NCBI GenBank assembly: GCA_003971905.1
Contig: RSEE01000023.1
Span: 682,001 to 746,000, forward strand
Reading direction: 5' to 3'
Source: Moniliella sp. 'wahieum'
Taxonomy: Eukaryota
Length of the DNA: 64,000 nucleotides
Shown: in pieces, positions 19,862 to 52,147 of the stretch
How positions within the stretch are numbered: position 1 is the stretch's first letter
Layout: each line of letters begins with the position of its first letter
Translations under genes and position numbers: made by a program
Notes under the pieces: model-generated
Database searches by the model: none
What the model was told of the DNA's origin: nothing
Seen by the model: the letters and a program-made list of their open reading frames with translations, nothing else

Positions 19862-21587
19862 TTAGTTGTTCATGTAGGAGCTCGAGTCAATGTGTCGGGC
19901 AGCTCGGGAATGGCTACCTCGAAACGAGACTGAATGTCCAGTACTTCTGGTCCTCCTCCGACGAGACAAACATGATGGCCAAACCCTTCGTGCCAAAGCG
20001 GCCGGCACGGCCCACACGATGGAGATACGAGTCGGCCTCGCCGGGCGTGTCGTACGAGATGGAAACGTTGCCCGCTCCACATCAATACCGCGGCCAAAGA
20101 TGTCAGTGGCAACGAGGATACGCTTCTCAAAGTTCTTGAACTGTTGGTACCGCTTGATCCGCTCCTCCTGGGAAGCGAACCATGGATCGAAATGGAAGGG
20201 AAGTTGCACTCCTGCAACAGCTTGTCCAGTTGATTCGCCCGCGAGACCGACTTGACAAAAATGATGACCTGGTTAAACTCAAGCGTGTCGAGCAAGTCGT
20301 TGAGCTTGCGGTTCTTCTGCGCCTCCTCGAGGCGGACATAGTGCTGCTGAAGACCGTGCAAGGTCAACTTGGTCTCGTCATCAACGTAAATCTCGAGCGG
20401 GTTCTGCATAAACTTCTTGCAAACAGGACGAATCTCCTTGGACAAGGTGGCAGAGAACATCATCACCTGCTTGTGATGGGGCGTGGCGCGGAAAATCTCC
20501 TGCACGTCGCGGCGCATGTCGATCGTTTCAAGCATCTTGTCGCACTCGTCCAGAACAAAGTGCTTGACCCCAGTTGCCTTCAACGACTTGTCCCGTACAG
20601 CGCATTCATCCGTCCGGGCGTACCGACAAGAATGTGGGGGCAACGAGCCTTGTCCTTCAGCAGCGCCTGGTCCTCCTTAATGGGGGTACCACCGTAGACA
20701 ACCGAGGTGCGCACCTCAGGCATGTACTTGGAGAAACGGAGGTACTCGTTCTTGATCTGGAAGGCCAACTCACGCGTGTGGCACATGACGATCACGCTCA
20801 CCTCCCCATCCACCGGTTCAATCTGTTGCAAAGTTGCCAGGACGAAGACGGCGGTCTTACCCATACCCGACTTGGCCTGGCAAAGCACGTCCATGCCAAG
20901 AATGGACTGGGATACATCTTGTTGGACTGTGGAATGAGATGGTTGGGAGGGGTCAGTTGCGGGCCTTCAGCAGCGTGGGTTGGAAATGGCGTACCTTCCG
21001 AAGGGTGCTCGAACCCAAGGTCACTGATGGCGCGCAGAAGCTCGGGCTTGAGCAAAAAGTCACGGAATCCAGTCGAGTGGATGCCTACGTAGGAGCCCTG
21101 ACGGCGGCGAAGAGAAAGGTAAGTAATGGTCGGAGAAGCTGGAGAAAGGTAAACAAATCCCCTAGTCGGGGCGGGGCGGGTCTGGCGTGGTCTGGTGTGG
21201 AACAGCCTGCCTGGCCAGTCCACAACGGGGCTTGCGGAGAAAAGCGGAGGGACAGGGTCCGACGCGTCCAAGCATCCGACAACATTGACCGGGGCCCAAC
21301 GACACGCAGCAACACGTTGCACCTGCGCAGGGGCCGCGCAGAGCACACAGCACAGTGCACCGATCCCGCCGAGACGAAGAGGAGGGTGGGGAATGGGACT
21401 CAGACTAAGATTGCATGCTGACCTTTTGGCGCCGTCGGCTTCGGCCGGGGCAGCGTCGGTGGACTCGCCGGTGGTGGCGGCGGGGGCGGGGCAACAATCT
21501 CCTCCTCGTAGTCGATGAGACTGGGCAGGGGTGGGGTTAGTGGTGGGATGGAGGGGGGGGGTGCGACACATACTCTTCGTTGTCCAT
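19862..21587 (-). CDS. SUB2: DECD-box RNA helicase Sub2/UAP56
   Basis: Motifs [62 protein letters not shown] and [13 protein letters not shown]. At least three introns. Confidence 0.96.
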
Positions 21588-36120: not shown

Positions 36121-39100
36121 TTAGAGGATGCCCTGGGAGTAGTATGGAACTGGTCGTAGAGCCGGGTAATGCAGAGCCGGCCGAGTTGAGGATGAGGCGA
36201 TCGACAATTCGTCGCTCTGCTCGGCGCTGAGCGCGAGCTGGAAGCGCTGCCGCAGCTGGTTGGCCGCCTCCTCGCCGAGCGCAAAGCAAGGCAGCCGCGA
36301 ATCGCGCGCCATCAGCTCACAATCATGATGATCCGCTCTGCCTCCTTGCGCACGTCCCGGAACGCCTGCCGCATCAACTGTCGGAACTGATCAAACTTGC
36401 TGCTCTCCATGCCGCCCAGCAGATCAATGTACTCCTGCGGCATCTTGAATGGCGCCGCCTCGAACCCCACACCAGGCGAGATGCCGAGCATAAAGCCAAA
36501 GTCAATGTCTGTCACATACAATCCCTGTCAGTTTCCTCTTCCTCCTTCCTCCATTCCCCCCCCCCCCCTCCCACCACCACTCGGACGGAGAGCAAGGACG
36601 TACGGATCAAGTGGCCCTCGTGGTCGACGAGGATGTTGCCATTGTGGCGGTCCTTGATCTGCAGGAGATAGCAGATGATCGAGTAGGCCGCCAGCGACCG
36701 CATAAACGCATCCTGGGCGCGTTTGAACTTGCCCGACGAAGGCGGGCCATAGACCTGGGTGTAGTGGTCCCAGAGCGAGTAGGTGCGGATCGGCTCGGAG
36801 CCAGCGCCTTCCGAGGCGTGCGAGTAGGCCTCCTTTTTGATCGAGTGCACCGACACGGCATCGGTGATGGTCTCCATCACCCCCGACGACTCGGAAGTGA
36901 CGAGGATGTTAAAGTAGCGCACCCACACCCCGGATCCCTCGGCGTGCCAGATCGATCAAACTCGCCAATGAGCTGGGTGGCCAGCTGCTCCTGCCGCAGG
37001 TCCGCGCCGGTTTTGATAATGACGCTGATCACGTCCCAGTGCGCATGCGCGCCATACGGCGACGCGGCGCGCAACCGCTCCCGCTTGGCGGCCCACGACT
37101 CGCGGAAGATGGCGCAGAGGGATCATCTTTGTTCACCACCGCACGGATCGTGTCCGCATCCTCTTCGCCCCCCGCTGCCTCGTCGGTACCCGCGAACGCG
37201 TTCCGCTTGGCCTTGGCTTTGGCCTTGGCCTTGTGCGAGCACACGGGCCCACGCAACCGCGCCATTCGCTCCTCCTCCAACGAGATCATCTCCGCCATGA
37301 TGCGTGCCCGAATCGCTTCTGCGTCCGCAGGGATGGTGCGTGCCGCACTCGAGCTGCTCACCACCGCCCCACCGCCCGCAGCACTCACTCCGCCATTCAT
37401 TGCGCTGGGCGGAACCGATGTGCGGCGGCGGTACTGTTTGTGCCCACGAGGGCAAGAGCTTGCTCACCACCCCTGCCGTTCCCTGCCCCGGTTCGGAGGA
37501 CGCAGGCGCGGCGCAGGCGCAGACGCAGACGCACCAACGCCTACTAGCGACGCAGCCCCGCTCGCGGCGGCACCCAAGGGCGCCGTGATGACCCAGCCCT
37601 TGCGCGCGCGGTTCTGGTTGAGCTGGGCAAGCATGATGGCCGCGGTGCGCATGCGCTCCGAGTAATCTGCCAGGCTAAACTCGCGTTCCTCCTTGCCGTC
37701 GCTCGAGTGAACATGAGACCCGCGCGAGCCGCGCCAGACCATCGTGTCGTGGACCGGTTGCGCGACGAGCCCGAGGCAAAGGGGCCCGGTTCAAGGCCAT
37801 CCGGCTCGGATTCCGACGAATCGGGATCTTCTTGCCCGCCAAACCGTTCGAGGTGCGAGCCATACGCCTGTTCCGTCATATCCACCCCTTCGGCCTCGGG
37901 GGATCGTCGTCAACAGAAGCTCTGCACCACCTGCATCGTCCACGCTCACCTCGGACACCATGCTTTCGTCGGCCCAGTCACCAGCCTGTGCCTCGGCTTC
38001 GCTGGGCCGTCGGGAGAATGGGCCAAGGCCAGGGAAGAGGAAAGGGAAGGATGGTCCGTGTGCGCCTTTTGCCCCAGAGGTGGCCGGGCTCCATGCGAAC
38101 CAGGCGCGCTCTGACTCAAGGACCGCTTGAGCCCATCCGAAGGCGGCGGACTCAGTGCCGGGCCTGACGTGTGGGCGTCACGGTGGGTGCGGCACGGGTC
38201 CAAGAGGGGTGAGGAGACATCGAGACGGGTGTGCGAAGCTGCTGAGCGGGTTCGACAGCGTCCGGGCCGCGCCATTGCGTCGGGGGACAAGGTGGCTGCC
38301 GAGCCGCCGGGGGCAGGGGGGAGCCTGATTGCGCGCGCGGCACGGGAGTGGGCTTCTTTGGTCAACAGCCGCCGCATTGTGTCCCGGTTGGCGCGGCGGT
38401 CCGGGTCAAAGTCGAGGTCATTGCGCAGGACCTCAATCTGCAGCACATACGGTGCGCGGTCCGCCGAGTTGAGCACCACCGCCTCGGACGGATTGATTCG
38501 GACTATGCGGTGGTGGCGCGCTTGCTTGCCCGGCACAGACGTCCCATCCCCATGTGCGTCGTGGTGCTTGTGCCGGCCCATCACGTCCGACGTGGCGGCA
38601 CACCAAGCGGGAGACAGCTTCAAGGGGGAGCATGTGGTTCAGTTCTGTCAGCTCTGCCCGCAACGCCGATACACGTGCCGGTTTCGGAAGCAGTAACAGC
38701 CGTCCCGAAATCGATCGAGCCGGGCCAGAAAGTCGGTTTGGGTGCGGGCATAGTGCGAGCGGAGGAGCGCAACCCGCTCCTCGTACGGCACGTCGCTACC
38801 AAGCGCAGGCGCAGGCGCGTGCGCTTCGCTCGGTATCGAAGCGGCACTGAGCCTTTGCCCACGTAGGCGGAACAGGTTTCCTGACGAACTGCTCGGTGCT
38901 TGTCGCGCCAGATTGGGCACACTGGCCCCCCTTGCCAAGTTGGGCGTGGACTGGCTCGGTGCACCTCGAGCGAGATGGCCAAGATTGAAGCTGGTGGGAG
39001 GAGGGCCCGGGTGGGGCGAAGAATAAATCATCGATCGCGCTGCCTGGTGTGAACCGTACGCTGCACCAGGGATCGATCCGGGGTCTTTGGTGGCTCCATC

Positions 39101-40578
39101 ACCGTCCCGGGGGGAGGTTGAATCAGTTGGGTAAAGGCCAGGCTGGGTCGTGCTCGCTGCACGGGCCCACAAGGTGGGAGGCGTATTGCCAAACCCTTCG
39201 GGACCGAGGAGGCATAGGTGTACCCGTAGGGGCCTTGCGTGGGAGCTGCAAGGCGATTGCCAGCTTGGTGCACCATGGGCGAAGGAGAGCCAGATACGAG
39301 CTGCGGCGAGGGCGGGAGTGGTGGGGGTGGCGCAAGCGTTTGTTGCGTTTGGGTTCGCTACTCGACCAGGCGCAAGCATCCCGGGGGGAGGTACGATTTG
39401 GACTTGGGACATACCAGCGGCCAGCATGCCCGCTGCGCGGTCCTTGAGCTCAGCCAGCTTCTCAGACGTGCTGTTGGACCAAAGAGATGCCCCCCACGAC
39501 CCCCACGAGGACGAAGCGAACGTTTGGGTCCAGCCAGCGCCACCGGCTTCCTCACGTCCAAGAAACGGGGCCGAGTGGGCGCGTTGGTGCGGCGCGCCGT
39601 CTGGCAGAGCAAGATTCGTCGCGTCATTCGGGGACAGGGAGGATGGCGATTCAACGCGGGGGAACAAAGACGACTCTTCCCTCCTAGCGGGTGGAGAGGC
39701 CAAAGGAAGATTTGGCTGCGCCTGGTGGGCGTCTGTGCCGTGTTCCGGGTCCGAAGTCGCGCCCAGGCTAAAGGAAGTGGGGCTCTTGGAGGGTAGTGGA
39801 GGTGGCACTTGCTGTTCCTCCGTGTCCGAAGCACTGCTGGAGCTGAGAAAGACGCGTCGTCGCCCTCATCGTCACTCGGTTCCTCGTCCGCAGCGCGGCG
39901 GAGCAGCCGTCAAACTCATCCGGCGCGGGCTTGCAGCCTTCAAGAATGGTCATTGGACCGGCTGCGGTCATGATGGCCGGTTGCCCAGGCGTCGAGGCAG
40001 CCATGGACGCCATTCCGACCAGAGTGGTCAGAGCATGGGCCGGGTGGACGCGCACGGCCTTGCCTCTGCAGGGCTAGCGCGGGCGGCGGCGGCGAAAGGG
40101 AGCGGCCCAGGCGGCCCAGGGCGACATGGGCCCGTCCTGGGTGGGCGGGATGGCGGTGGAGACGTCATCGCTGGCATGGGGGACAGAGGGCGGCGGCGCC
40201 TGGGCATCAAAGAGGAGGCGCTGGCAGTGGTTGATCACGCGGCGGCTCACCAGCAGCGCGGGCGAGGAGGGATCGCCGGACCAGTCGGCGCGGGCGGCCT
40301 GGAAGAACCAGAGGGTAATGAGCGCGGTATGCACCGAGTCGCCGCAGCGCGCGAGGATGAAGTGCTCGAGCGCGGCCGAGGGCCCGTCGGGGCGGCTGAT
40401 GAGCAGGTGGCAGAGCTGGGGCCAGTAGACGCGCACCTGGTCCCAGGGGAAGGCGCGTTCGAGGGCGCGGACGAGGTAGTGGGTGATGCCGACGCTGTCC
40501 CAGTACGTCTTGAGGTAGGTGATGGCGAGGGGGGCGTGAAGTGACGAGTGGAGAGAGCCGGAGCAGCAGCTCGGCCAT
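36121..40578 (-). CDS. PIK1: Phosphatidylinositol 4-kinase type III beta (Pik1)
   Basis: N-terminus MAELLLRL..GITHYL..YWPQLCHLL, then IVRINPSEAVVLNSADRAPY, SVIIKTGADLRQEQLATQLI, SLAAYSIICYLLQIKDRHNGNIL and IDFGFML..SPG.VGFEAAPFK. Ends YYSQGIL. Confidence 0.94.
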
Positions 40579-41583
40579 CCTGGGCGGCGCAGAGGAGGTG
40601 GTGGGCGGAGCGAGCAGGTGCGCGTGGCTGGCCAGCGCACGCCGTGTGAGCAGGGCGATGCGTGACGGGCTGCCACGCCACACACTGGCCCTGCGCCGCC
40701 GCGGCCAACCCTAGTGCGGGCGGCGCGGAATGTGCGGGGTGCGGCGCACGGGGGGGAGTAACTAGTAACCACGGCCATATGGCAGCAACCACGAGCGGGT
40801 TTGTATACTAGCTCTTTTTCCTCCCCACGAGGTGCCCTGTAATGGATCACTCCAACCGGCATTGTTCCGTTGGTCCGACGCCCTACTGGTTAAAGAGGCG
40901 CCAGTGGGGTGTACCAAATTCTACGAGAACTGCCAAGGGGGAGGGGGGTTCGTCTTCGGTTCATGACCTGGTGCCACAGCAGTATGTACGCACCCGAGAA
41001 GAACGGAGAAGAAGTCATATGATCATCATCGCCTACCAGTTCGCCATGTTGGACCTAAGCAATACTTCCATCCAACGCAATGACGTCGGCGATGTAGCAA
41101 CCCCGGGTATGCACTCCATGGTTCAGATACAGCTAATTCTGTTTTCTGCGCCTCTGTGTCCCCTCTCTCGCACCCCTGTCGTCAGACCCCATATACTACC
41201 ACAAAAAGTACGCCCTGGCATATATTTTGAGGATCCCTTTTCTCCCCTCCGCCTCCCCCACATCTCACAAGAACGTGCCCATGGCACCTAGGCGGCCTGG
41301 GGAAGGCATCTGCGGGTAATAGCAGGCTCTCGCAACAAGGTGTTCGGGTGTGGAGCTGTATTTAGGTGGCTCAGAAAGGATGCGTGCTAGTGAAACGTTC
41401 AGTGTTGGTTAGCTTTGACTGGCGTGGCCGCGGGCGGCGGAATGCGCGTCCACAATAGGCCAGGTGGGTAGCGAGCAGTTCCGCCCCCCGCCTCCTCGCC
41501 TCCCCGCCCACCTAGCGGGGTGCGTCCATTCCATCGCCGCCACGGGCCGCGTCGCGTTTCTCTTGCCAGCCAGCTTGCCCACC

Positions 41584-43551: not shown

Positions 43552-45848
43552 ATGCATCCTGTCTGCTCACCCGCCGGAGCTACCCCATCTCCCCCCGTGC
43601 CGGCCCAGACCCCCGTTGATGTATCGATTTGGTGGGATGTGGAGGTGCGTTTTTGATTCGCTATGGATAGCCCTAAGCTGACAGAAGGTTGCCTCAGTCG
43701 TGCCCACCGCCTACGACGATCAGCTTTGCGGAGGCGCTCTGTGCGCTCTACAATGTAGCCATTGCCCTGGCGCCTTGGACAGTGGCATGGACTCGGTCGA
43801 ATCTCCCATTCGGTCTGCCGTCGACGGCGAGCTCCTTGTTTCGTGCCTACGGAGACTGGACCACTCGCTCCTCTCATCTTCTCCAGGAGCTCGAGTCGGC
43901 ACCGGTTACCTTGCTCGAGGCCCCGTACGAAGGATGATGCAGAAACTCACATCCGATATCCGCCTCATTACCGATGTCGTGGCATTTGCCGTTGCACACA
44001 ACGCTCGATTTGCTGGACAAACGGGATACCGCACGCGCCGCTCCAGCCGCAAGCTGAGGATCGTCTTGGCTCTGGGAACCGGGACTACCAATACACCATC
44101 CAGCAGCTCCAGCAATTGGGGCACGAAGTTGTCTTGATCATGCCTCGCCCATCCGTTCCCAATCCCGAGTCCCCGATGCTCAATATGTTTTCCACTAACA
44201 CCAAGGCGCAGGGGGGGCAACTTGATTGGCACACGGATGTGTTACGTCCGCCATGGACCACCACCCCCATCACCGGTCTTGATCATCCTGTCGATATGCC
44301 GCTCTGGGCCCTTTCCTCCAACGACCCGCCACGATTGGCCGATCTGCTGTGCACCCTGCGTCAAATAAGAAGACGGGAGGTGTTGCGCGCGCGTTTCTTC
44401 CCCGTTGGAGCGTTGCTGCACCAGTCTCATTCGGGCAAATGGTTGAGTGAGCGCGAGCTTATCCTCATGGTCGACCTGGACGCATCAGTTATGGGCACAG
44501 ACAATTGGGGCCACTACCTTGATGGTGCAAAAGGCAGGTCTTGTGTTGGCGCGTGTGCCGCAGGACAAAGAGCGGAAGGCGGCCAAGCTAGATGGCGCAC
44601 TCTTGCATCCCAAGTGGTACAAGACGTTGATTGACTTGGAACTTCGCTCGTTTCCCTCTGTCCAAGCCGCTGCGTGGCAAAAGCCAGGGAGATGTGCCTT
44701 GGACCGATCAACAGTCCCACTTGGCCATCTGGACCGACGATCCAGTGAGTGTCTTTGGTCCTTTGGTGGAGACGCTCCTCGATCCTCAATTCGCTCGCAA
44801 CATGCCCACCCTCGAACAAGTACGGGAGAGGCTGACACCCAATTTACTACCGCTGCTGCCCATGTTGCTGGAGATGTGGGAGCGTACCTCGAACTGGCGG
44901 CCCAAGGAGGGCTTTGGCATCCGACGAGTGGTCCCAGGGCAGAATCAAATTGGCAAAAGACTGGTGGGACACGCTGTACTGTCTTGCGCTTGCGTCCTTG
45001 TTACGGCCACGTCTTGATGACACTGCACCTCTCATCAGCACAGGCGGATCAACGATCGTCACTGTCGACTTGGCTACCCCATTTATCGATGCTGTCACTC
45101 GCTTTCACCAACTTGGGACTTGGAAACCTAGCCAAGAGCAACTGCGTCACCACATTGCCCAAAATGATCCTTCCATCTATCGTCGTGCCGGTGTTGGTGG
45201 ATGGGATGACTACATTCGGATGTTACAGGTACGTTGGGACTTGGCCTGCCCACTCGTGCCAGATGAACTTGTGTGTGAGACTGACCGCTCATACCGGTGT
45301 GTCAGAATGCAAATCTCGTGTTTGACGATGGAATGGGGGCGTTTCCCTGGAAAACTTTTGGTACCTCACCTTGATCAAGTTGGAGTTGACAGCGATGGCT
45401 CTTTGAGAGGCGCCTTGGCCGCAGAGGCGGACAAAGCCCAACAGCCGCTGGCCTGGTCGCCACGGCAACATTGGTGGTGGACCAGACGGATCGACCACTG
45501 GATGCGTTTGTGCCTTTCATGGGAACATTCTGCATGCTCGACGGGCGGCCGCTGGCTGCCGTTCACCCAGGAGGGAATGCGGAGCTTGCTTTCTCCCAAG
45601 GCATACCGGCTGGCACAGCTGGAACAAGGCGACTCGGCGGGCTATCTGGCTTTGGCCGAGGTACGTGTCTCTCTAGGCAGGCAGAGCACAGGGCGCGACA
45701 GCGACGACTGACGCTTGCTTTGGATGGACAGAACGCCGGGATCCTCAGCCACGACCAGACGGGGCACCTATTTCTGAACCCCAAATGGTGGACGGCGCTC
45801 TACCGCGTCCATCTCGCCTATCTGTCGCGAGTTCATGGGCTCAGCTAA
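43552..45848 (+). CDS. NYN (PIN-like, LabA/DUF88/MARF1-type) domain protein 1 with about 4 C-terminal helical repeats
   Basis: NYN motifs VSIWWDVE|SCPPP (spliced), FRAYGDW, KLTSDIRLITD and IVLALGNRDY..LQQLGHEVVLI. Repeats such as FGPLVETLL.. and DPSIYRRAGVGGWDDYI. Confidence 0.72.
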
Positions 45849-46175: not shown

Positions 46176-49100
46176 ATGACCATCCTGGTGCGCAGCGCCC
46201 GTCTGGGTGTCTCTCGCGCTGCCGCCACCCGCCTGCGTCTCCCGCCCCGCCCGCGGCGGCCGGGCGTCGGGCACACGCGCTCGCCGTCCGCCCCGCCCGC
46301 CTCCGCCCGTCCCGACGCCGTCGGCTCGGCTGCCCCCCTCATCCGTGCCCGTCGCGTCCGAGGCGATCGACCCGCCCGTGTGCATCCTGTGGGACTTTGA
46401 AAACTGCCGCATCCCTTCGGAATATTCCGCCCCTCACGCCATCGCCGCGCTTCTCACCACCGTCCGCCTGGCCACCTTGCCTCACAATGCCCAGCACGGC
46501 GGCCAGCTGGTCCGTTTCCAGGTGTATGCCGACTGGAGCCTCGTGCCCAGCCACACGACCAGGGAGCTTTCCCGCGCCGCGCCACGCTCGTCCACACGCC
46601 CCATGTGCCCGGCCTGTCCAACACGGCCGATTGGCGCTCATCACCGATGCGCTGGCCCGAGCCAACCTGCTGGGCCGCTCGCAGCCCATGCGCATCTTTT
46701 GTCTCCTCGGCGACCGACTACGGGCCGATGCTGCGCATGCTGCGCAATTGGCACCACGAAGTCGTCCTCGTCAATCCCCATCCCACCATGGGCAAGCTGC
46801 CCCCTCCCTCACCGAGTCTGCCGATGCCATTCTTAGCTGGCGCCACGACGTTCTCGACACCCACGTTAACTACACCCCTGCTTGGCGAGAAGCAGCTACG
46901 CTGCCCCTCTCTTCTCGGCAAAAGGCGTCCGTCGCTCACCTGCGCTCCCCTGCTCGCGCTTTCTCCCCCTTGGTAGACACGCTGCTCTCGTTTCAACTCA
47001 ACGGCGTCGTGGCGCCGACCAAAGCACAGTTCCACAACGAGCTTCTTCGTGTCTTTCCCGACGCGTATTCCCGCGCCGGTGTGCCACTGCCGATGACTAC
47101 GTTGAGCTAGCCGTCGAGGCCCAAGTGCTGTGGCCTCCCAGTGCAGAAATGGACACGGTTCGACTCGATCGGCGCTACTTTGTCCATTTGGTCAAGCTTC
47201 ACCTTGCGGCGTTCCCCTTTCCTGCGCCGCTGCGGCCGATATGGTAGACCCAAGCTTGCGGGGGAAGTATCGACTGAAGGGAACGTTCTTGCCAGGCCGT
47301 CAGTAGGAGGACCTGTGATCCCACTGCGACGGGAACAGCGGTATGCGCTCCGCGCCTGTCTCTTTCTCCCCTCGCCACGTACTTGCCCCTGATTGAAACA
47401 CTGCTCTACTCTCGCCGTCTGTCGGGTCGCGCAAGCGGGGTGAAACGAAGTTGGTGAGCTCCTCACGGCCGAGTTTGGCGTCGATGCGTTTGGCAAGCTC
47501 GGCTTGTCTGATTGGTCCACCTACCTCCAATCTGCCATGGATGCCGGTCTGGTCCGTCTAATCAACCAACGTGGCACGGAGAGCGTCAGCTCACCCTCGA
47601 TTGGTTTTCTACCTTGGTCCACTTAGAGGCAATCACCTTGCCGTCCTCGGACTCCCTCCCTCGCCCTCTGCCGCAACAATCGCAACCCTCACCTCCATCT
47701 TCCTCATCCACTTCCACTCCCACTCCTCTTCCTCTTCGCAGTCAAGCCTTCACGCCTGCCCCGCCGCTCTATCATTTCATCCCCCCAGTCCACACCCGCA
47801 TCCACATCCACATCCTCACAGCAAAGGCGTCGTTGGAGACGCTCTATTCCCTTCCGGTTGCCAGCCTTCCCTCAGACTCCATCCCTCCATTTGCTGAGTT
47901 GGTCGTATTCATGCGAGCGTTGAGTCTTTGGCTCTTCGTCCCGATATGACGTACCTCATCTCGTCTGGTCTCCTGGTCAAGGCCGAAGCGTGGGAGGAAG
48001 GCGCACATTTGATCAAAACCAGATGGCCAAAAGCGCATGGTACGTCCTTCTCTGTTCGACAAAAAACAAGACCCGTACTAACGCAGTTGTGTTGCAGGAA
48101 TTGGGACTGGTAACCATGTCTTCTGACGACCTGACCACTTGACCCCACCCCGAGATTCTACATCTCCTTGTACCGCATCATGGAGCTTCAGTCGCCTTCC
48201 CCCCAAATTACTGCTGATTGGTTGCAGCGCCAGTGGCAGGACAGACGGGCATGGCGACTTGTACAATTGGTTTATGCACAGTCGCAAATTTCTCGGCGAA
48301 TGGTCTCCATTGTACGCGTTTGTTCCCCTGCTCGACACGCTCTTTGGCCATGACGTTCCGGCCAAGGAGAGTTGACATTGGTGGCGCTCAAGCAGGCTGT
48401 CCTCAGTCATGCCCCCGAGATCCTCTCAGATGCCCACATTGAAAGTTGGGACGAGTACATGGCAATCGCCAAATCAGCCGGGATTGTGGATCTAGACTCC
48501 ACTGGCCTGCTGCCCACTGTGTCTTTGACAGCAGGATGGATGGCAGCTCTTTTCCACCTGGAACTGCTCCATCGCCATACCATCTACCGCCTCCCCGCCC
48601 ATCTTGCCCGACCTCCTACCCCTGCCCCTGCCCCTGCCCCGGCCTCCCTTCCCAGCCGGCGCCAGTCCCACAACTACCGCGAAAGGAAAAAGCAAAGCAC
48701 ATGCCCGCCCACCTAGTTATGCTCGACACCACCAGTGCACCCATGGGGGGCGGCAAAGCTACCGCCGCCTCGTCCCAGTCCCGTAGGAAACGATTCTTGC
48801 CTCGGATCACGCCCTCTCAGGAGCAAGCCGCTCATCTGACCCCATCCCCGTCGAAGCGTTTGGTCCGTTGGCCAACATCCTGCTTCAGATGCAATTCCAC
48901 CGCCTGCCTACGCCTTCCACCGCCGAACTGGAAGCAACGGTGCTAGCGACCATGCCGGATACCTTGGATGCTGCGGGGTTGATGGATGGGCCTCCTACCT
49001 ATCGCTTGCCGAAGCAACGGGGATTGTGCAGGTATCGACGTCTCGCGACGGAAGCGAACACGTTGCGCTCGAACCTGACTTTTACGCCCGCCTAGCCGAG

Positions 49101-51232
49101 TTCCAAGCTACCTCCATCTCCAATGATCCGGCGGAACTGGAGGGCCTGCTCGAAGTGCAGGGTCAAGCAATGGGACGATCCTTTGCTCCGGCCCGCCACC
49201 CAGTTGGACGAGGGAGGTAGATGAGGAGGAGTTGGGGGAGCATGCACCTTCGTACGGGGTGACGGATGTGATCTGGGATGACCAGAAGGACGCATTCGCT
49301 CCTGCGGCGCAAGCACGTCATGAACCGAGCTCTCTCCAGTCATGGCACGCCGCCGTGTGGCTGCCAAGGGAATTGGTGCGCCGTTGGAAGCATTTGCGCC
49401 CTTGATCGAGACGTTGCTCAATCAGGGGGTGCCATGTCTTCCAGCACCGAGACGGGCCACTTTTTCGCGTCGCGCTTCCCTGGCGTTTTCAAGTTGGCCG
49501 AGACGTTGAGTTGGAAACTATACTGAAGCGTGCCGTTGAAGTTGGCATCCTGGAGGATGTGCCTGAGAAGGCATTGTGGAGCTTCAGCCCGACTTTTGGG
49601 TTACCATCCTAGACCTTCACTTGTTCAAGCTTGGTAAGTTGCACGCCCGTGCCGCCTCGGGTCTGGAGGGTGAGTTGGACGTGTCTCCGATCCAAGCTCG
49701 TCTACACCAAGTGGTTAACGAGAATGGGTCGGCGCTGGAGGTATTTGGGCCTTTGGTGCAGGCTCTATTACGGTCCCGCGAGGCGGATGGGGTATCGGCC
49801 TCTCGTCTGCATGTGCGCACCCTTCTGTCGATTGAGCTGGAAGGCGGGTATGCCTCGCTGGGTGTGCGGGACTTTGATGAGTACATGGAATTAGCGAGGC
49901 CGCTGGCCTAGCCCTACCGGACTCCATGGCACCGACGGTTCATTCTCGACGCCCGATGGTACGCCCGTCTGCTCCAACTTCAACGGGCCGCTTTTCTTCC
50001 CCACAAGCGGCAATGGAGGGATTGTGCGGGCCCGTTGGCACGCTTGCTCCGACACAGGGCTCTTTCCTCTCGCCGCTGCTCCAGCGTGATGCCGACTTTT
50101 CTCTCACCATGGCCACCATGCCCTTTGCTGAGCGAGATCAGCACGAACCCTCTGCATACGTTCATGCCGTTGCTTGATATGATGCTCGCCCACGCCAGCG
50201 CAAGGAGCGCTCTGCCCATCATTCCCAAGCCATGGATTCGTAGCGCGCTGGAAGCCAACTTTGACTCACTCTACTCGCGTGTGGGCGTGCGCGGGTTCGA
50301 CGAGTACATTCAACTAGCCAAGGTTCGTATCGTTTCATTGCTCACCCCCGTTATTAACCCTCGCTGGATGTGCTTGCAGGATGCTCGTCTGTTGGGACCG
50401 TCTCCCGATACGAGACGGTGATCCCTTCTCCTTTCTGGCTTCGCACCCTTTCTTTCCTCCATCTTTCATACATCAAATCTCCAAACACTTCTAGTCCAGA
50501 AGAGCATGGCCTGGTCCAAGGCGAAGCTACTGACATCCCCATGACGATCCTCTGCAAGCGCTGTCCTCAGCTGAACGCGCTCTCCTTCGGTATATCGTTA
50601 AGGAAAAGGGCACCGTCGCTAGGGCATTTGCTACGTCCATGGACGAATACCTCAAACTGGGTGACCATGTGCCCAATCAGCCACTGAATGAAGTTGCTGA
50701 GGTGAGTGGATTCTCCTCCCCGTCGTGAACTACGTTTGGGTGTCATGATGCTGACCCTGCTCTGTTCGGCAACACGTAGAAGCTCGGTCTGTTCCAGGAG
50801 AACCCAGAAGCACCTTGGAGCTGGCTTTCCCAGCTCGCGGACCTCCACTTGGCCCTCTATCCCCACATCCCTCTTGAGGCTGAGCTAGAGATGGCCCGCA
50901 AGCTACCCCTCGAGCCCGACGACGTGATGGATCGGCTTTTGACCTGTCGCCAGGCCAGTGTGTTGGACGACCTGGCCACCATTGACCTTGCTGGCCTAAC
51001 GGCCGCGTTTGACCTTGGGCCTAGTGAGATGTCCGTGATTGGCCAACTTCAACTTGCTGGTCTCGTTACCGCCGTCCTTCAACACCCACCTGCCCACTTC
51101 TTGTCTCGTGTTCTGGCGTTGGATTCCCAGACCCCAGTGTATGGCAACATCCGCCTGGCTCCCGACTGGTGGCAGCAGTTTGTTCGTTTACACGCCGCCA
51201 CCCTTCGCATACAGGATCAGGCACATGGGTAA
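46176..51232 (+). CDS. NYN domain protein 2 with about 9-10 C-terminal ~75-aa repeats (LOTUS/OST-HTH-like by inference); start approximate
   Basis: NYN motifs CILWDFENCRIP, FQVYADW, NTAD..LITDAL and LLGD.DYGPMLRMLRNWHHEVVLV. Repeat consensus F.PL...L...P..Y...G...W/FD.Y...A...G.V....V.L.P.W...L..L. Confidence 0.75.
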
Positions 51233-51522
51233 TCATACACGCCATGTATCGGCCCAGAGAGACCACCTACACACACGTTGCCGGCCATGGCGTTGGCCAC
51301 AGTGTTAGCGTACACTACCTACAGGATCTATAGACGAAACACAGACATAGAGCTGTGCAAAGAGTTGCACATTTTGGGGGGGTGGTACAAGGCGATGGAC
51401 ACTTTGGGTCGTCATGTGTGGCCAGAACCAAGGGCAGGCAGCAGGGTGCCTGAGGCTCTGAGGGCATGCACCACAAAATAGGCCAAGGCCAAGGCAGGCA
51501 TGGGAAGAGCAAAACAAGGAGT

Positions 51523-52147
51523 TTACACGCTCTTGAAGTTCTTGCCCACACCGCCGGCAGCCCTTCATCTGCTGCTTGGAGAGCTTGGGAGCCGCGGCGG
51601 AACCGGCCTTCTTGGCCTCCTTGCGAGCCTCGGCACGCGCCTTCTTCTCCTCCTTGGACTTGGACTTGGCCGCGTCGCGGGCCGCCGAGCGCACTTCGGG
51701 CTTCTGGTTGCGCTTGGCCTGGATGTTAGCCAGCGAGAGACCGACCACACCACGCTGGTGCTTGACCGTCTTGCGCGAGCGCTTCTTGGCCACCTCCTCC
51801 GAGATGCCCTTCTTGTGCATGCGGCGGAAGTACACCGTCCAGGCAATCTTACGCGGGTTCTTGCGCTGCAGGAACAGCTGCTCGGTCTTGTGCGAGTTGA
51901 AGCGGTAGACCTTGCCGTCACCAGAGCGCACAAACAGGCGGCCCCGGCTGGGGTACCTTGCGCAGCGAGAAAGAGTCCGTCTCCACCTGTCCCACCGCAG
52001 AGGCTGGTCAGTTTCCATCCTGCCGCCACCGCCTTGTGGCATCCGAAGAGCACCCAAGGCAGAAAAGGGGACACGGAACGTCCGCCCCACGGTGCCCAGG
52101 CGTGCGGACGACACGAGGAGGCCATCCCCGAGTACACGTACCTTCAT
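51523..52147 (-). CDS. RPL24: 60S ribosomal protein eL24
   Basis: MK|intron|[72 protein letters not shown]. Confidence 0.96.

Follow-up and report, generated by a model that had tools for sequence, protein, structure and literature searches.

A putative MARF1-type NYN nuclease with a long array of LOTUS-like winged helices encoded in Moniliella sp. 'wahieum'

Human MARF1, also called limkain-b1, is built from an NYN domain, two RRM domains and eight LOTUS (OST-HTH) domains. In animal oocytes, proteins which combine NYN with LOTUS govern the decay of mRNA and also transposon RNA (MARF1), and in plants they govern the turnover of mRNA (DNE1); we know of no study of their fungal counterparts. 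Here we analyzed a stretch of 64,000 nucleotides from Moniliella sp. 'wahieum' (GenBank assembly GCA_003971905.1, contig RSEE01000023.1, positions 682,001 to 746,000, forward strand), called the window below, and in particular one of its genes, gene B, at window positions 46176 to 51232 on the plus strand. Judging from its sequence, gene B is a real, probably intact and uncharacterised gene for a putative MARF1-type NYN nuclease with LOTUS-like winged helices.

According to passages of PMC5499597, eukaryotic LabA-like PIN domains are mostly fungal and are usually fused to OST-HTH; the fungal combination of NYN with OST-HTH has been noted in print before. PMC2848206 defined the nuclease with OST-HTH as a module, and passages of PMC2848206 and PMC5499597 propose it as a stand-alone module of RNA degradation. 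Binding to G-rich or G-quadruplex RNA is stated for the LOTUS domains of both MARF1 and plant DNE1 in parts of PMC7498356, PMC5499597 and PMC9181182. The plant proteins MNU and DNE1 are described in part of PMC9181182 as NYN with two LOTUS domains, with OHA and WW domains in addition in MNU. A search of the open-access literature found no paper on a basidiomycete NYN-LOTUS protein.

Gene B and its domains

The raw plus-strand sequence of 46176-51232 holds short open frames only, and three-frame views of it reveal a single coding path which switches frame every 50-150 bases. The path was compared with relatives found with A1, a profile of 17 in-frame unit pieces from the window, which was searched against 1.84 billion representatives; P0007, P0001, P0020, P0039, P0103, P0009, P0024 and P0133 are labels of the protein-cluster representatives it found. 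P0007 (579 amino acids, aa) aligns with gene B over 46285-48017 at 69.1% identity in 544 codons, and P0001 (919 aa) aligns over 48116-50743 at 64.7% identity in 850 codons. By these alignments both are clear orthologs of gene B. Because the open frames of these relatives stop and start at two canonical introns, we read 46176-51232 as one gene of three exons. The putative start is the ATG at 46176-46178 (frame 3; the NYN domain is read in frame 1), and the stop is the TAA at 51230-51232. We take gene B to be a single spliced gene of about 1,640 codons from a basidiomycete, which encodes an NYN domain and ten units predicted to be winged helices. Its features are listed below, where unit HMMs are hidden Markov models built from the units.

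46176..51232, plus strand: gene B, whole gene, from putative ATG to TAA, three exons, two canonical introns
46378..46850, plus strand: NYN nuclease domain with WDFENC, TAD/ITD and GD.DY; 85% identical to P0007 residues 42-192; four frameshifts
46961..47208, plus strand: unit U1, found by unit HMMs
47377..47631, plus strand: unit U2, found by unit HMMs
about 47885..48190, plus strand: unit U3, degenerate, split by intron 1, no significant HMM E value; from the three-frame view and alignment with P0007 and P0001
48040..48097, plus strand: intron 1, 58 nucleotides (nt), GTACGT ... TACTAAC ... CAG; the P0007 frame ends here and the P0001 frame begins after it
48319..48593, plus strand: unit U4, found by unit HMMs
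48859..49103, plus strand: unit U5, found by unit HMMs
49393..49629, plus strand: unit U6, found by a unit HMM
49741..49983, plus strand: unit U7, found by unit HMMs
50158..50474, plus strand: unit U8, found by unit HMMs
50597..50857, plus strand: unit U9, split by intron 2; found by a unit HMM
50702..50779, plus strand: intron 2, 78 nt, GTGAGT ... CTGAC ... TAG; the frame is kept across it and the P0001 frame ends inside it
about 50920..51199, plus strand: unit U10, degenerate; its last strand and helix alone match a unit HMM

An earlier note on this DNA had placed one gene at 46176..51232, and the ATG and the TAA are both where it put them. Its view that this is one gene and not several unrelated short ones agrees with the relatives, whose frames are colinear and break only at the two introns. 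The gene it described is real, and to that picture we add the two introns, 29 frame shifts and a shorter upstream copy, gene A.

The N-terminal domain carries the marks of an NYN nuclease. When the window is read through the breaks, with an X at each, and aligned with 18 NYN domains of the family, the acidic motifs WD.EN, ..AD/..TD and GD.D are all kept; following the MARF1 literature, we take the acidic residues of these motifs to be the catalytic ones. The ortholog P0007 matches Pfam NYN (PF01936) at 46.8 bits (cut-off 24.2) over residues 42-192, and 26 of 42 relatives scanned with Pfam (the 28 best and 14 longer ones, out of 150 listed) match it at E<=0.01, and the scores of 24 exceed the cut-off. 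A profile of the family's NYN domains from 21 members, A3, was searched against the PDB sequences and matched the MARF1 NYN structures along their whole length (6fdl, E 3.3e-20; 5yaa, E 3.7e-19), with LabA-like 2qip at E 0.01. As a single query P0007 matched MARF1 NYN in the PDB weakly (E 0.046 and 0.31), and a word-indexed search of longer proteins with the window NYN piece gave 139 candidates, none of which scored. By the motifs, the Pfam match of P0007 and the family profile, the domain is an NYN of MARF1 type, as the earlier note had it an NYN, and its nearest solved relative is the nuclease domain of animal MARF1.

Downstream of the NYN domain, ten diverged units follow the consensus [AV]F.PL...LL ... 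Y..AGV..[WF]DEY..LA...G.V.L ... V.L.P.[WF][WY]..L..L[HE]L. U3 and U10 are included in the count mainly by their position, their alignment to relatives and their C-terminal motif. When single units were searched against the window with tblastn, other units were matched with E values between 1e-4 and 6e-6. With an HMM built on four units, another five in the locus scored higher than anything elsewhere in the window on either strand (best 5.6 bits), and after three more HMM rounds the 21 best hits among 2078 fragments all lay at 43.4-51.4 kilobases (kb) on the plus strand. An HMM from public relatives alone recovers U1, U2, U4, U5, U7 and U8 and one unit of gene A, at E 4e-8 to 7e-12. The units had previously been given as about 9-10 diverged repeats of about 75 aa; ten diverged units specific to the locus by HMM agree with the count, and the length is revised to about 85 aa because a conserved segment, a putative helix, follows the wing in each unit.

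The units are only 12-35% identical to each other, and Tandem Repeats Finder returned no rows for 43.0-52.5 kb, where no repetition was seen at the DNA level beyond two short coding motifs, so the array is old. Single units are 48-85% identical to their positional orthologs, and are therefore conserved one by one. Rfam had no matches in 43.0-52.5 kb. The linkers at 47650-47880 and 48600-48650 (plus strand) are low in complexity and proline-rich, with His-Pro and Pro-Ala runs, and are poorly conserved with the ortholog, as expected of flexible tethers.

The frame switches could be read as decay or as assembly error. In gene B 29 frameshifts occur in about 4.36 kb; a single missing base would fit 21 of them and a single additional base the other 8, and there are no in-frame stops in 1,394 matched codons. 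Gene A takes 8-9 frame corrections in 1.48 kb, with no in-frame stops in 472 matched codons. The ribosomal protein gene RPL24e (window 51541-51989, minus strand) takes 2 frame corrections in 449 base pairs (bp) when compared with two homologs. In a DEAD-box helicase gene (window 19900-20970, minus strand) the frame switches three times at points where the Pfam positions are contiguous and an intron would not fit: positions 2-108 and 115-164 of DEAD are in different frames, and so are positions 2-52, 50-85 and 85-110 of Helicase_C. Because these essential genes show the same fault at a similar rate, the breaks seem to be a property of the assembly, and those of gene B are most likely assembly errors rather than decay. 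The earlier advice to polish the indels was sound, since single-base indels are also found in RPL24 and the helicase. The assembly carries about 1 indel per 150-300 coding bases, and its gene models need polishing before pseudogenes are called.

It is improbable, then, that gene B is a decaying pseudogene in which the breaks are real mutations. The number of frameshifts in genes A and B would fit decay, but the essential genes break at a like rate (2 in 449 bp in RPL24, 3 in the helicase), every break is of a single base, in-frame stops are absent from the matched codons of both genes, and the NYN domain has kept 85% identity with its ortholog. It is scarcely credible that 46176-51232 holds several unrelated short genes, as its short raw frames might suggest, since the 579- and 919-aa frames of the relatives are colinear and broken at canonical introns only, and full-length relatives carry NYN and units in one protein. 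Both readings were rejected, on the lack of in-frame stops, the same fault in essential genes and the colinear relatives.

Fold of the units and their relation to LOTUS

Because no window unit lies in one frame from end to end, P0103 (188 aa), a relative with two units, was folded with AlphaFold2 in place of the window protein. The mean predicted local distance difference test score (pLDDT) was 87.2, and about 95 within both units. Each unit is predicted to run from a helix and a short strand through three helices to a two-strand wing. The window units align with P0103-type units at an hhalign probability of 98.9% (E 1.3e-17); the repeats thus align with a public family as well as with each other, in line with the earlier note. 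Foldseek with the P0103 model found tandem winged-helix proteins only, the best at E 3.9e-3. On this modelling the units are winged helices, and the structure alone cannot single out LOTUS, because LOTUS is among the best matches in fold searches of P0103 but tied with other winged helices.

Evidence which points to LOTUS comes from other comparisons. A search of the ESM Atlas with P0103 gave OST-HTH as the family of each of the top three named clusters (0.86-0.88; 176-181 of 256 features in common), and all ten best hits belong to that family; these values are below the tool's 0.9 line and serve as a lead only. For profile comparison, true OST-HTH domains were collected from prokaryote genomes with the Pfam model, and were compared by hhalign with A2, a profile of P0103 with 34 homologs. 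With 9 alphaproteobacterial domains A2 aligned in register over 71 columns (probability 28%, P 6.2e-4). A set of 26 domains, drawn from a class and two phyla of prokaryotes, gave an alignment of 48 columns with A2, likewise in register (probability 30%, P 5.6e-4). In 100 column shuffles per set the best scores were 18.0 and 18.6, compared with 27.6 and 28.0 observed, so that 0 of 200 reached the observed value; reversed alignments scored about 18. When the fusion to an NYN domain of MARF1 type is considered as well, the profile-profile matches and ESM features make LOTUS homology of the units likely, in our estimate, and the units are most probably very divergent LOTUS/OST-HTH domains.

Several results weigh against this picture of a MARF1-type nuclease with LOTUS-like units. 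Pfam OST-HTH (PF12872) had no match in 10 window pieces (E<=1), in the 42 relatives (E<=0.01) or in 20 relatives scanned at E<=10, so the units are not members of PF12872 as it is defined. Searched against the PDB sequences, A1 and A2 found no LOTUS chain at E<=10. The AlphaFold2 model is of a distant relative and not of the window protein, and in the fold searches the winged helices of ORC2, JetB, MCM8 and the MarR type score 8-9.7, equal to or above LOTUS. The hhalign probabilities of A2 with OST-HTH, at 28-30%, are low, and the window's own profile A1 gave nothing against the OST-HTH profiles. The window's U4 piece gave low and inconsistent hits in the ESM Atlas, to AbrB-like and EF-hand clusters. 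At the nuclease end, Pfam NYN matched the in-frame window fragment at 46180-46836 (54 aa) weakly (E 0.013, 16.5 bits, cut-off 24.2), because the frameshifts split the domain into five pieces, and the window's own 79-aa NYN piece found no match in the PDB sequences. Pfam scans of the 10 window pieces and of the same sets of 42 and 20 relatives found no RRM domains.

The proposals of the earlier note on this point are therefore kept in part. The units may be called LOTUS-like winged helices with respect to their fold, as predicted in P0103, while PF12872 never matches, the fold is tied with other winged helices and the profile evidence is weak. The architecture is MARF1-like in its NYN domain and winged-helix array, and not in the RRMs of MARF1, which are absent.

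The PDB matches of A1 and A2 to arginine decarboxylase and cytidine deaminase were set aside as chance hits. A tblastn search with P0024 for bacterial NYN-OST-HTH genes found no match in plasmids.

Possible action and alternatives

We suggest, as the more probable reading, a mechanism in which the NYN (PIN-like) domain of gene B would be a metal-dependent endoribonuclease tethered to the ten-unit winged-helix array. The array would bind RNA, which would give choice of substrate and avidity, as the LOTUS domains of MARF1 and DNE1 do, and it might also dock on partner proteins. Either way, it would bring the NYN site to transcripts for cutting. In this account we infer the LOTUS homology, the RNA binding, the nuclease activity and any biological role; the part in RNA surveillance or defence which the earlier note proposed, like one in mating or meiosis, would be a conjecture.

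Each unit continues after its last strand in an amphipathic segment, P-x-[WF]-[WYF]-x-x-L-x-x-L-[HE]-L, which is conserved in all 14 units of genes A and B, while in agaricomycete members of the family the match mostly ends before it. This segment bears on an alternative, drawn from animal extended LOTUS, in which the array is mainly a scaffold for docking proteins and not an RNA binder. In part of PMC5458760, the extra helix after the wing of extended LOTUS is described as holding and stimulating a DEAD-box helicase; the segment in all 14 units, its apparent absence from most agaricomycete matches and the conservation of single units, as expected with separate partners, would fit such a scaffold. 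Passages of PMC5458760 and PMC7498356, on the other hand, state that fungal LOTUS domains seem to be without the extra C-terminal helix and that RNA binding is the ancestral LOTUS activity, and we consider a mainly docking array unlikely, if worth keeping in mind. By the same analogy, but with slightly less confidence still, the units could be the fungal counterpart of extended LOTUS, with ten units docking DEAD-box helicases or ribonucleoprotein (RNP) proteins, and gene B could encode a nuclease-armed scaffold of a cytoplasmic RNA granule policing transposon or mycovirus RNA. If that were true, a logic resembling that of germ granules would exist outside animals, and a basidiomycete lineage would have kept it in the form of a tandem gene pair. 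A different possibility is that the units are generic winged helices unrelated to LOTUS, for example DNA-binding ones, and that the protein acts on DNA or chromatin-bound nucleic acid. There is little to recommend it, as the array is fused to a MARF1-type RNase domain, the ESM features point to OST-HTH only, and the in-register OST-HTH signal in hhalign lies above all 200 shuffles. It is very improbable that gene B encodes an organellar RNA-maturation nuclease like plant MNU1/MNU2, sent to mitochondria by an arginine-rich N-terminus. The frame from the ATG at 46176 does read a stretch rich in R, A, S and P with few acidic residues before NYN, and the MNU architecture is NYN with LOTUS (in part of PMC9181182). 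The start codon and frame are putative, however, and GC-rich DNA yields peptides of this kind whichever frame is read; in P0007 no more than 41 residues, unlike those of the window, precede NYN, and NYN begins at residues 4-16 in most agaricomycete relatives. We keep to the reading of gene B as a putative MARF1-type nuclease whose LOTUS-like array would bind RNA.

Tandem paralog, family and known systems

Upstream of gene B lies gene A, a shorter tandem paralog with an NYN domain and four units. Its orthologs are P0020 (63.6%) and P0039 (56.9%).

43552..45848, plus strand: gene A, NYN and four units, frame-broken; the start is a guess and the stop is at 45846-45848
43615..44244, plus strand: NYN domain of gene A with VSIWWDVE, DIRLITD and G.RDY; the orthologs P0020 and P0039 pass Pfam NYN
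44341..44647, plus strand: gene A unit A, found by unit HMMs
44751..44994, plus strand: gene A unit B, found by a unit HMM
45076..45391, plus strand: gene A unit C, found by unit HMMs; split by the 77-nt intron
45229..45305, plus strand: gene A intron, 77 nt, GTACGT ... CTGAC ... CAG
45500..45833, plus strand: gene A unit D, its last unit, found by a unit HMM

The intron of gene A is in the penultimate unit, between the DEY-type helix and the next strand, which is also where intron 2 splits U9 in gene B. For each of the clusters of P0020, P0007 and P0001, the same five contig sizes, 10,731 to 10,737 bases, occur among the members, and these contig sizes alone suggest that the pair of genes A and B is kept in tandem in a relative. 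In Schizophyllum amplum, P0009 and P0024 (TRM61728.1 and TRM61729.1) have consecutive accessions and an equal contig size (661,552). Tandem pairs of the family may occur in Agaricomycetes too.

The remaining genes of the window, which is GC-rich (53-65%), are ordinary fungal ones: an amino-acid permease, a cyclin, the DEAD-box helicase, ELO, PIK1, a C2H2 factor, RPL24e and GILT. Gene B and RPL24e are convergent, with about 300 bases between their stop codons (window 51232-51541). The RPL24 of the window is nearest to Ustilaginomycotina homologs, at about 70%. In the PIK1-like kinase gene (window 37900-41300, minus strand) the PIK accessory domain alone was found (40077-40889), and among pieces of at least 35 aa from that region no PI3/PI4-kinase catalytic domain matched at E<=0.01. 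The missing match may be due to indels.

The A1 search matched 232 clusters at E<=1e-3, of which 105 reached E<=1e-10 and 8 reached E<=1e-30. Names were found for 21 of the 30 representatives looked up, all of them basidiomycete species, in the genera Schizophyllum, Plicaturopsis, Gymnopilus, Marasmius, Tephrocybe, Rhizopogon, Athelia, Suillus, Astraeus, Serendipita, Sporisorium and Tilletia (smuts and bunts) and the yeast genus Mrakia; we take their basidiomycete lineage as given, having checked those of Mrakia and Meira. Examples besides the two Schizophyllum amplum proteins are Sporisorium graminicola XP_029742749.1, Tilletia indica KAE8220382.1 and Mrakia frigida XP_076500419.1. Named members are annotated as 'NYN domain-containing' or hypothetical, and the NYN part alone is annotated. 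Gene B fits this family, with its N-terminal NYN and at least two units found by A1. In the best 150 of the 232 representatives, many of which are fragments, the number of detectable units per protein is 2 (71 proteins), 3 (35), 4 (29), 5 (10), 6 (4) or 7 (1), and the ten units of gene B are the largest array among the sequences compared. The earlier description of gene B as uncharacterised and repeat-expanded is consistent with its ten units and with public records which annotate nothing beyond NYN.

A word-indexed protein search with A2 gave 4 hits only, and neither PADLOC (8 family members) nor NCBIfam (6 members) gave a real hit. P0133 (Tephrocybe rancida KAG6920005.1, 1565 aa) has three separate NYN stretches (Pfam E 5e-37), and is either a multi-nuclease fusion or a merger of neighbouring genes.

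The family appears to be basidiomycete-wide, with at least 232 clusters, and to join a MARF1-type NYN to a winged-helix repeat which domain libraries have missed. Since its members occur in tractable fungi such as Schizophyllum commune and smuts, LOTUS-like arrays could be tested in organisms without a germline.

Gene B compares with known systems as follows. Animal MARF1 has RRMs, whereas the family of gene B has none in any Pfam scan; MARF1 has LOTUS repeats, whereas those of gene B fail Pfam OST-HTH and carry a conserved extra segment after the wing. Plant DNE1 and MNU1/MNU2 are like gene B in having an NYN of the same broad type, LOTUS or LOTUS-like domains and no RRMs, but they have two LOTUS domains where gene B has ten units, and no match to the OHA and WW domains of MNU was found. 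In bacteria and archaea, NYN (LabA-like, DUF88) with OST-HTH is a nuclease with one or two OST-HTH domains, and the array of gene B is much longer; bacterial OST-HTH gives a weak in-register profile match to the fungal unit, and the fungal NYN is far closer to MARF1 than to LabA-like 2qip (E 3e-20 vs 0.01). In extended LOTUS proteins (Oskar, TDRD5 and TDRD7) a helix after the wing contacts a DEAD-box helicase, and the units of genes A and B have a conserved amphipathic segment at that place, known from sequence. The basidiomycete 'NYN domain-containing' proteins are of the same family as gene B by the unit profile (named members E down to 1e-29) and the N-terminal NYN; they have 2-7 detectable units compared with its 10, the named ones are about 20-27% identical to P0007, and their units are mostly without the long putative helix which follows the wing in gene B. 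Altogether, gene B differs from the known NYN-LOTUS kind in its library-missed repeat, its conserved post-wing segment, its ten-unit array and its conserved tandem paralog.

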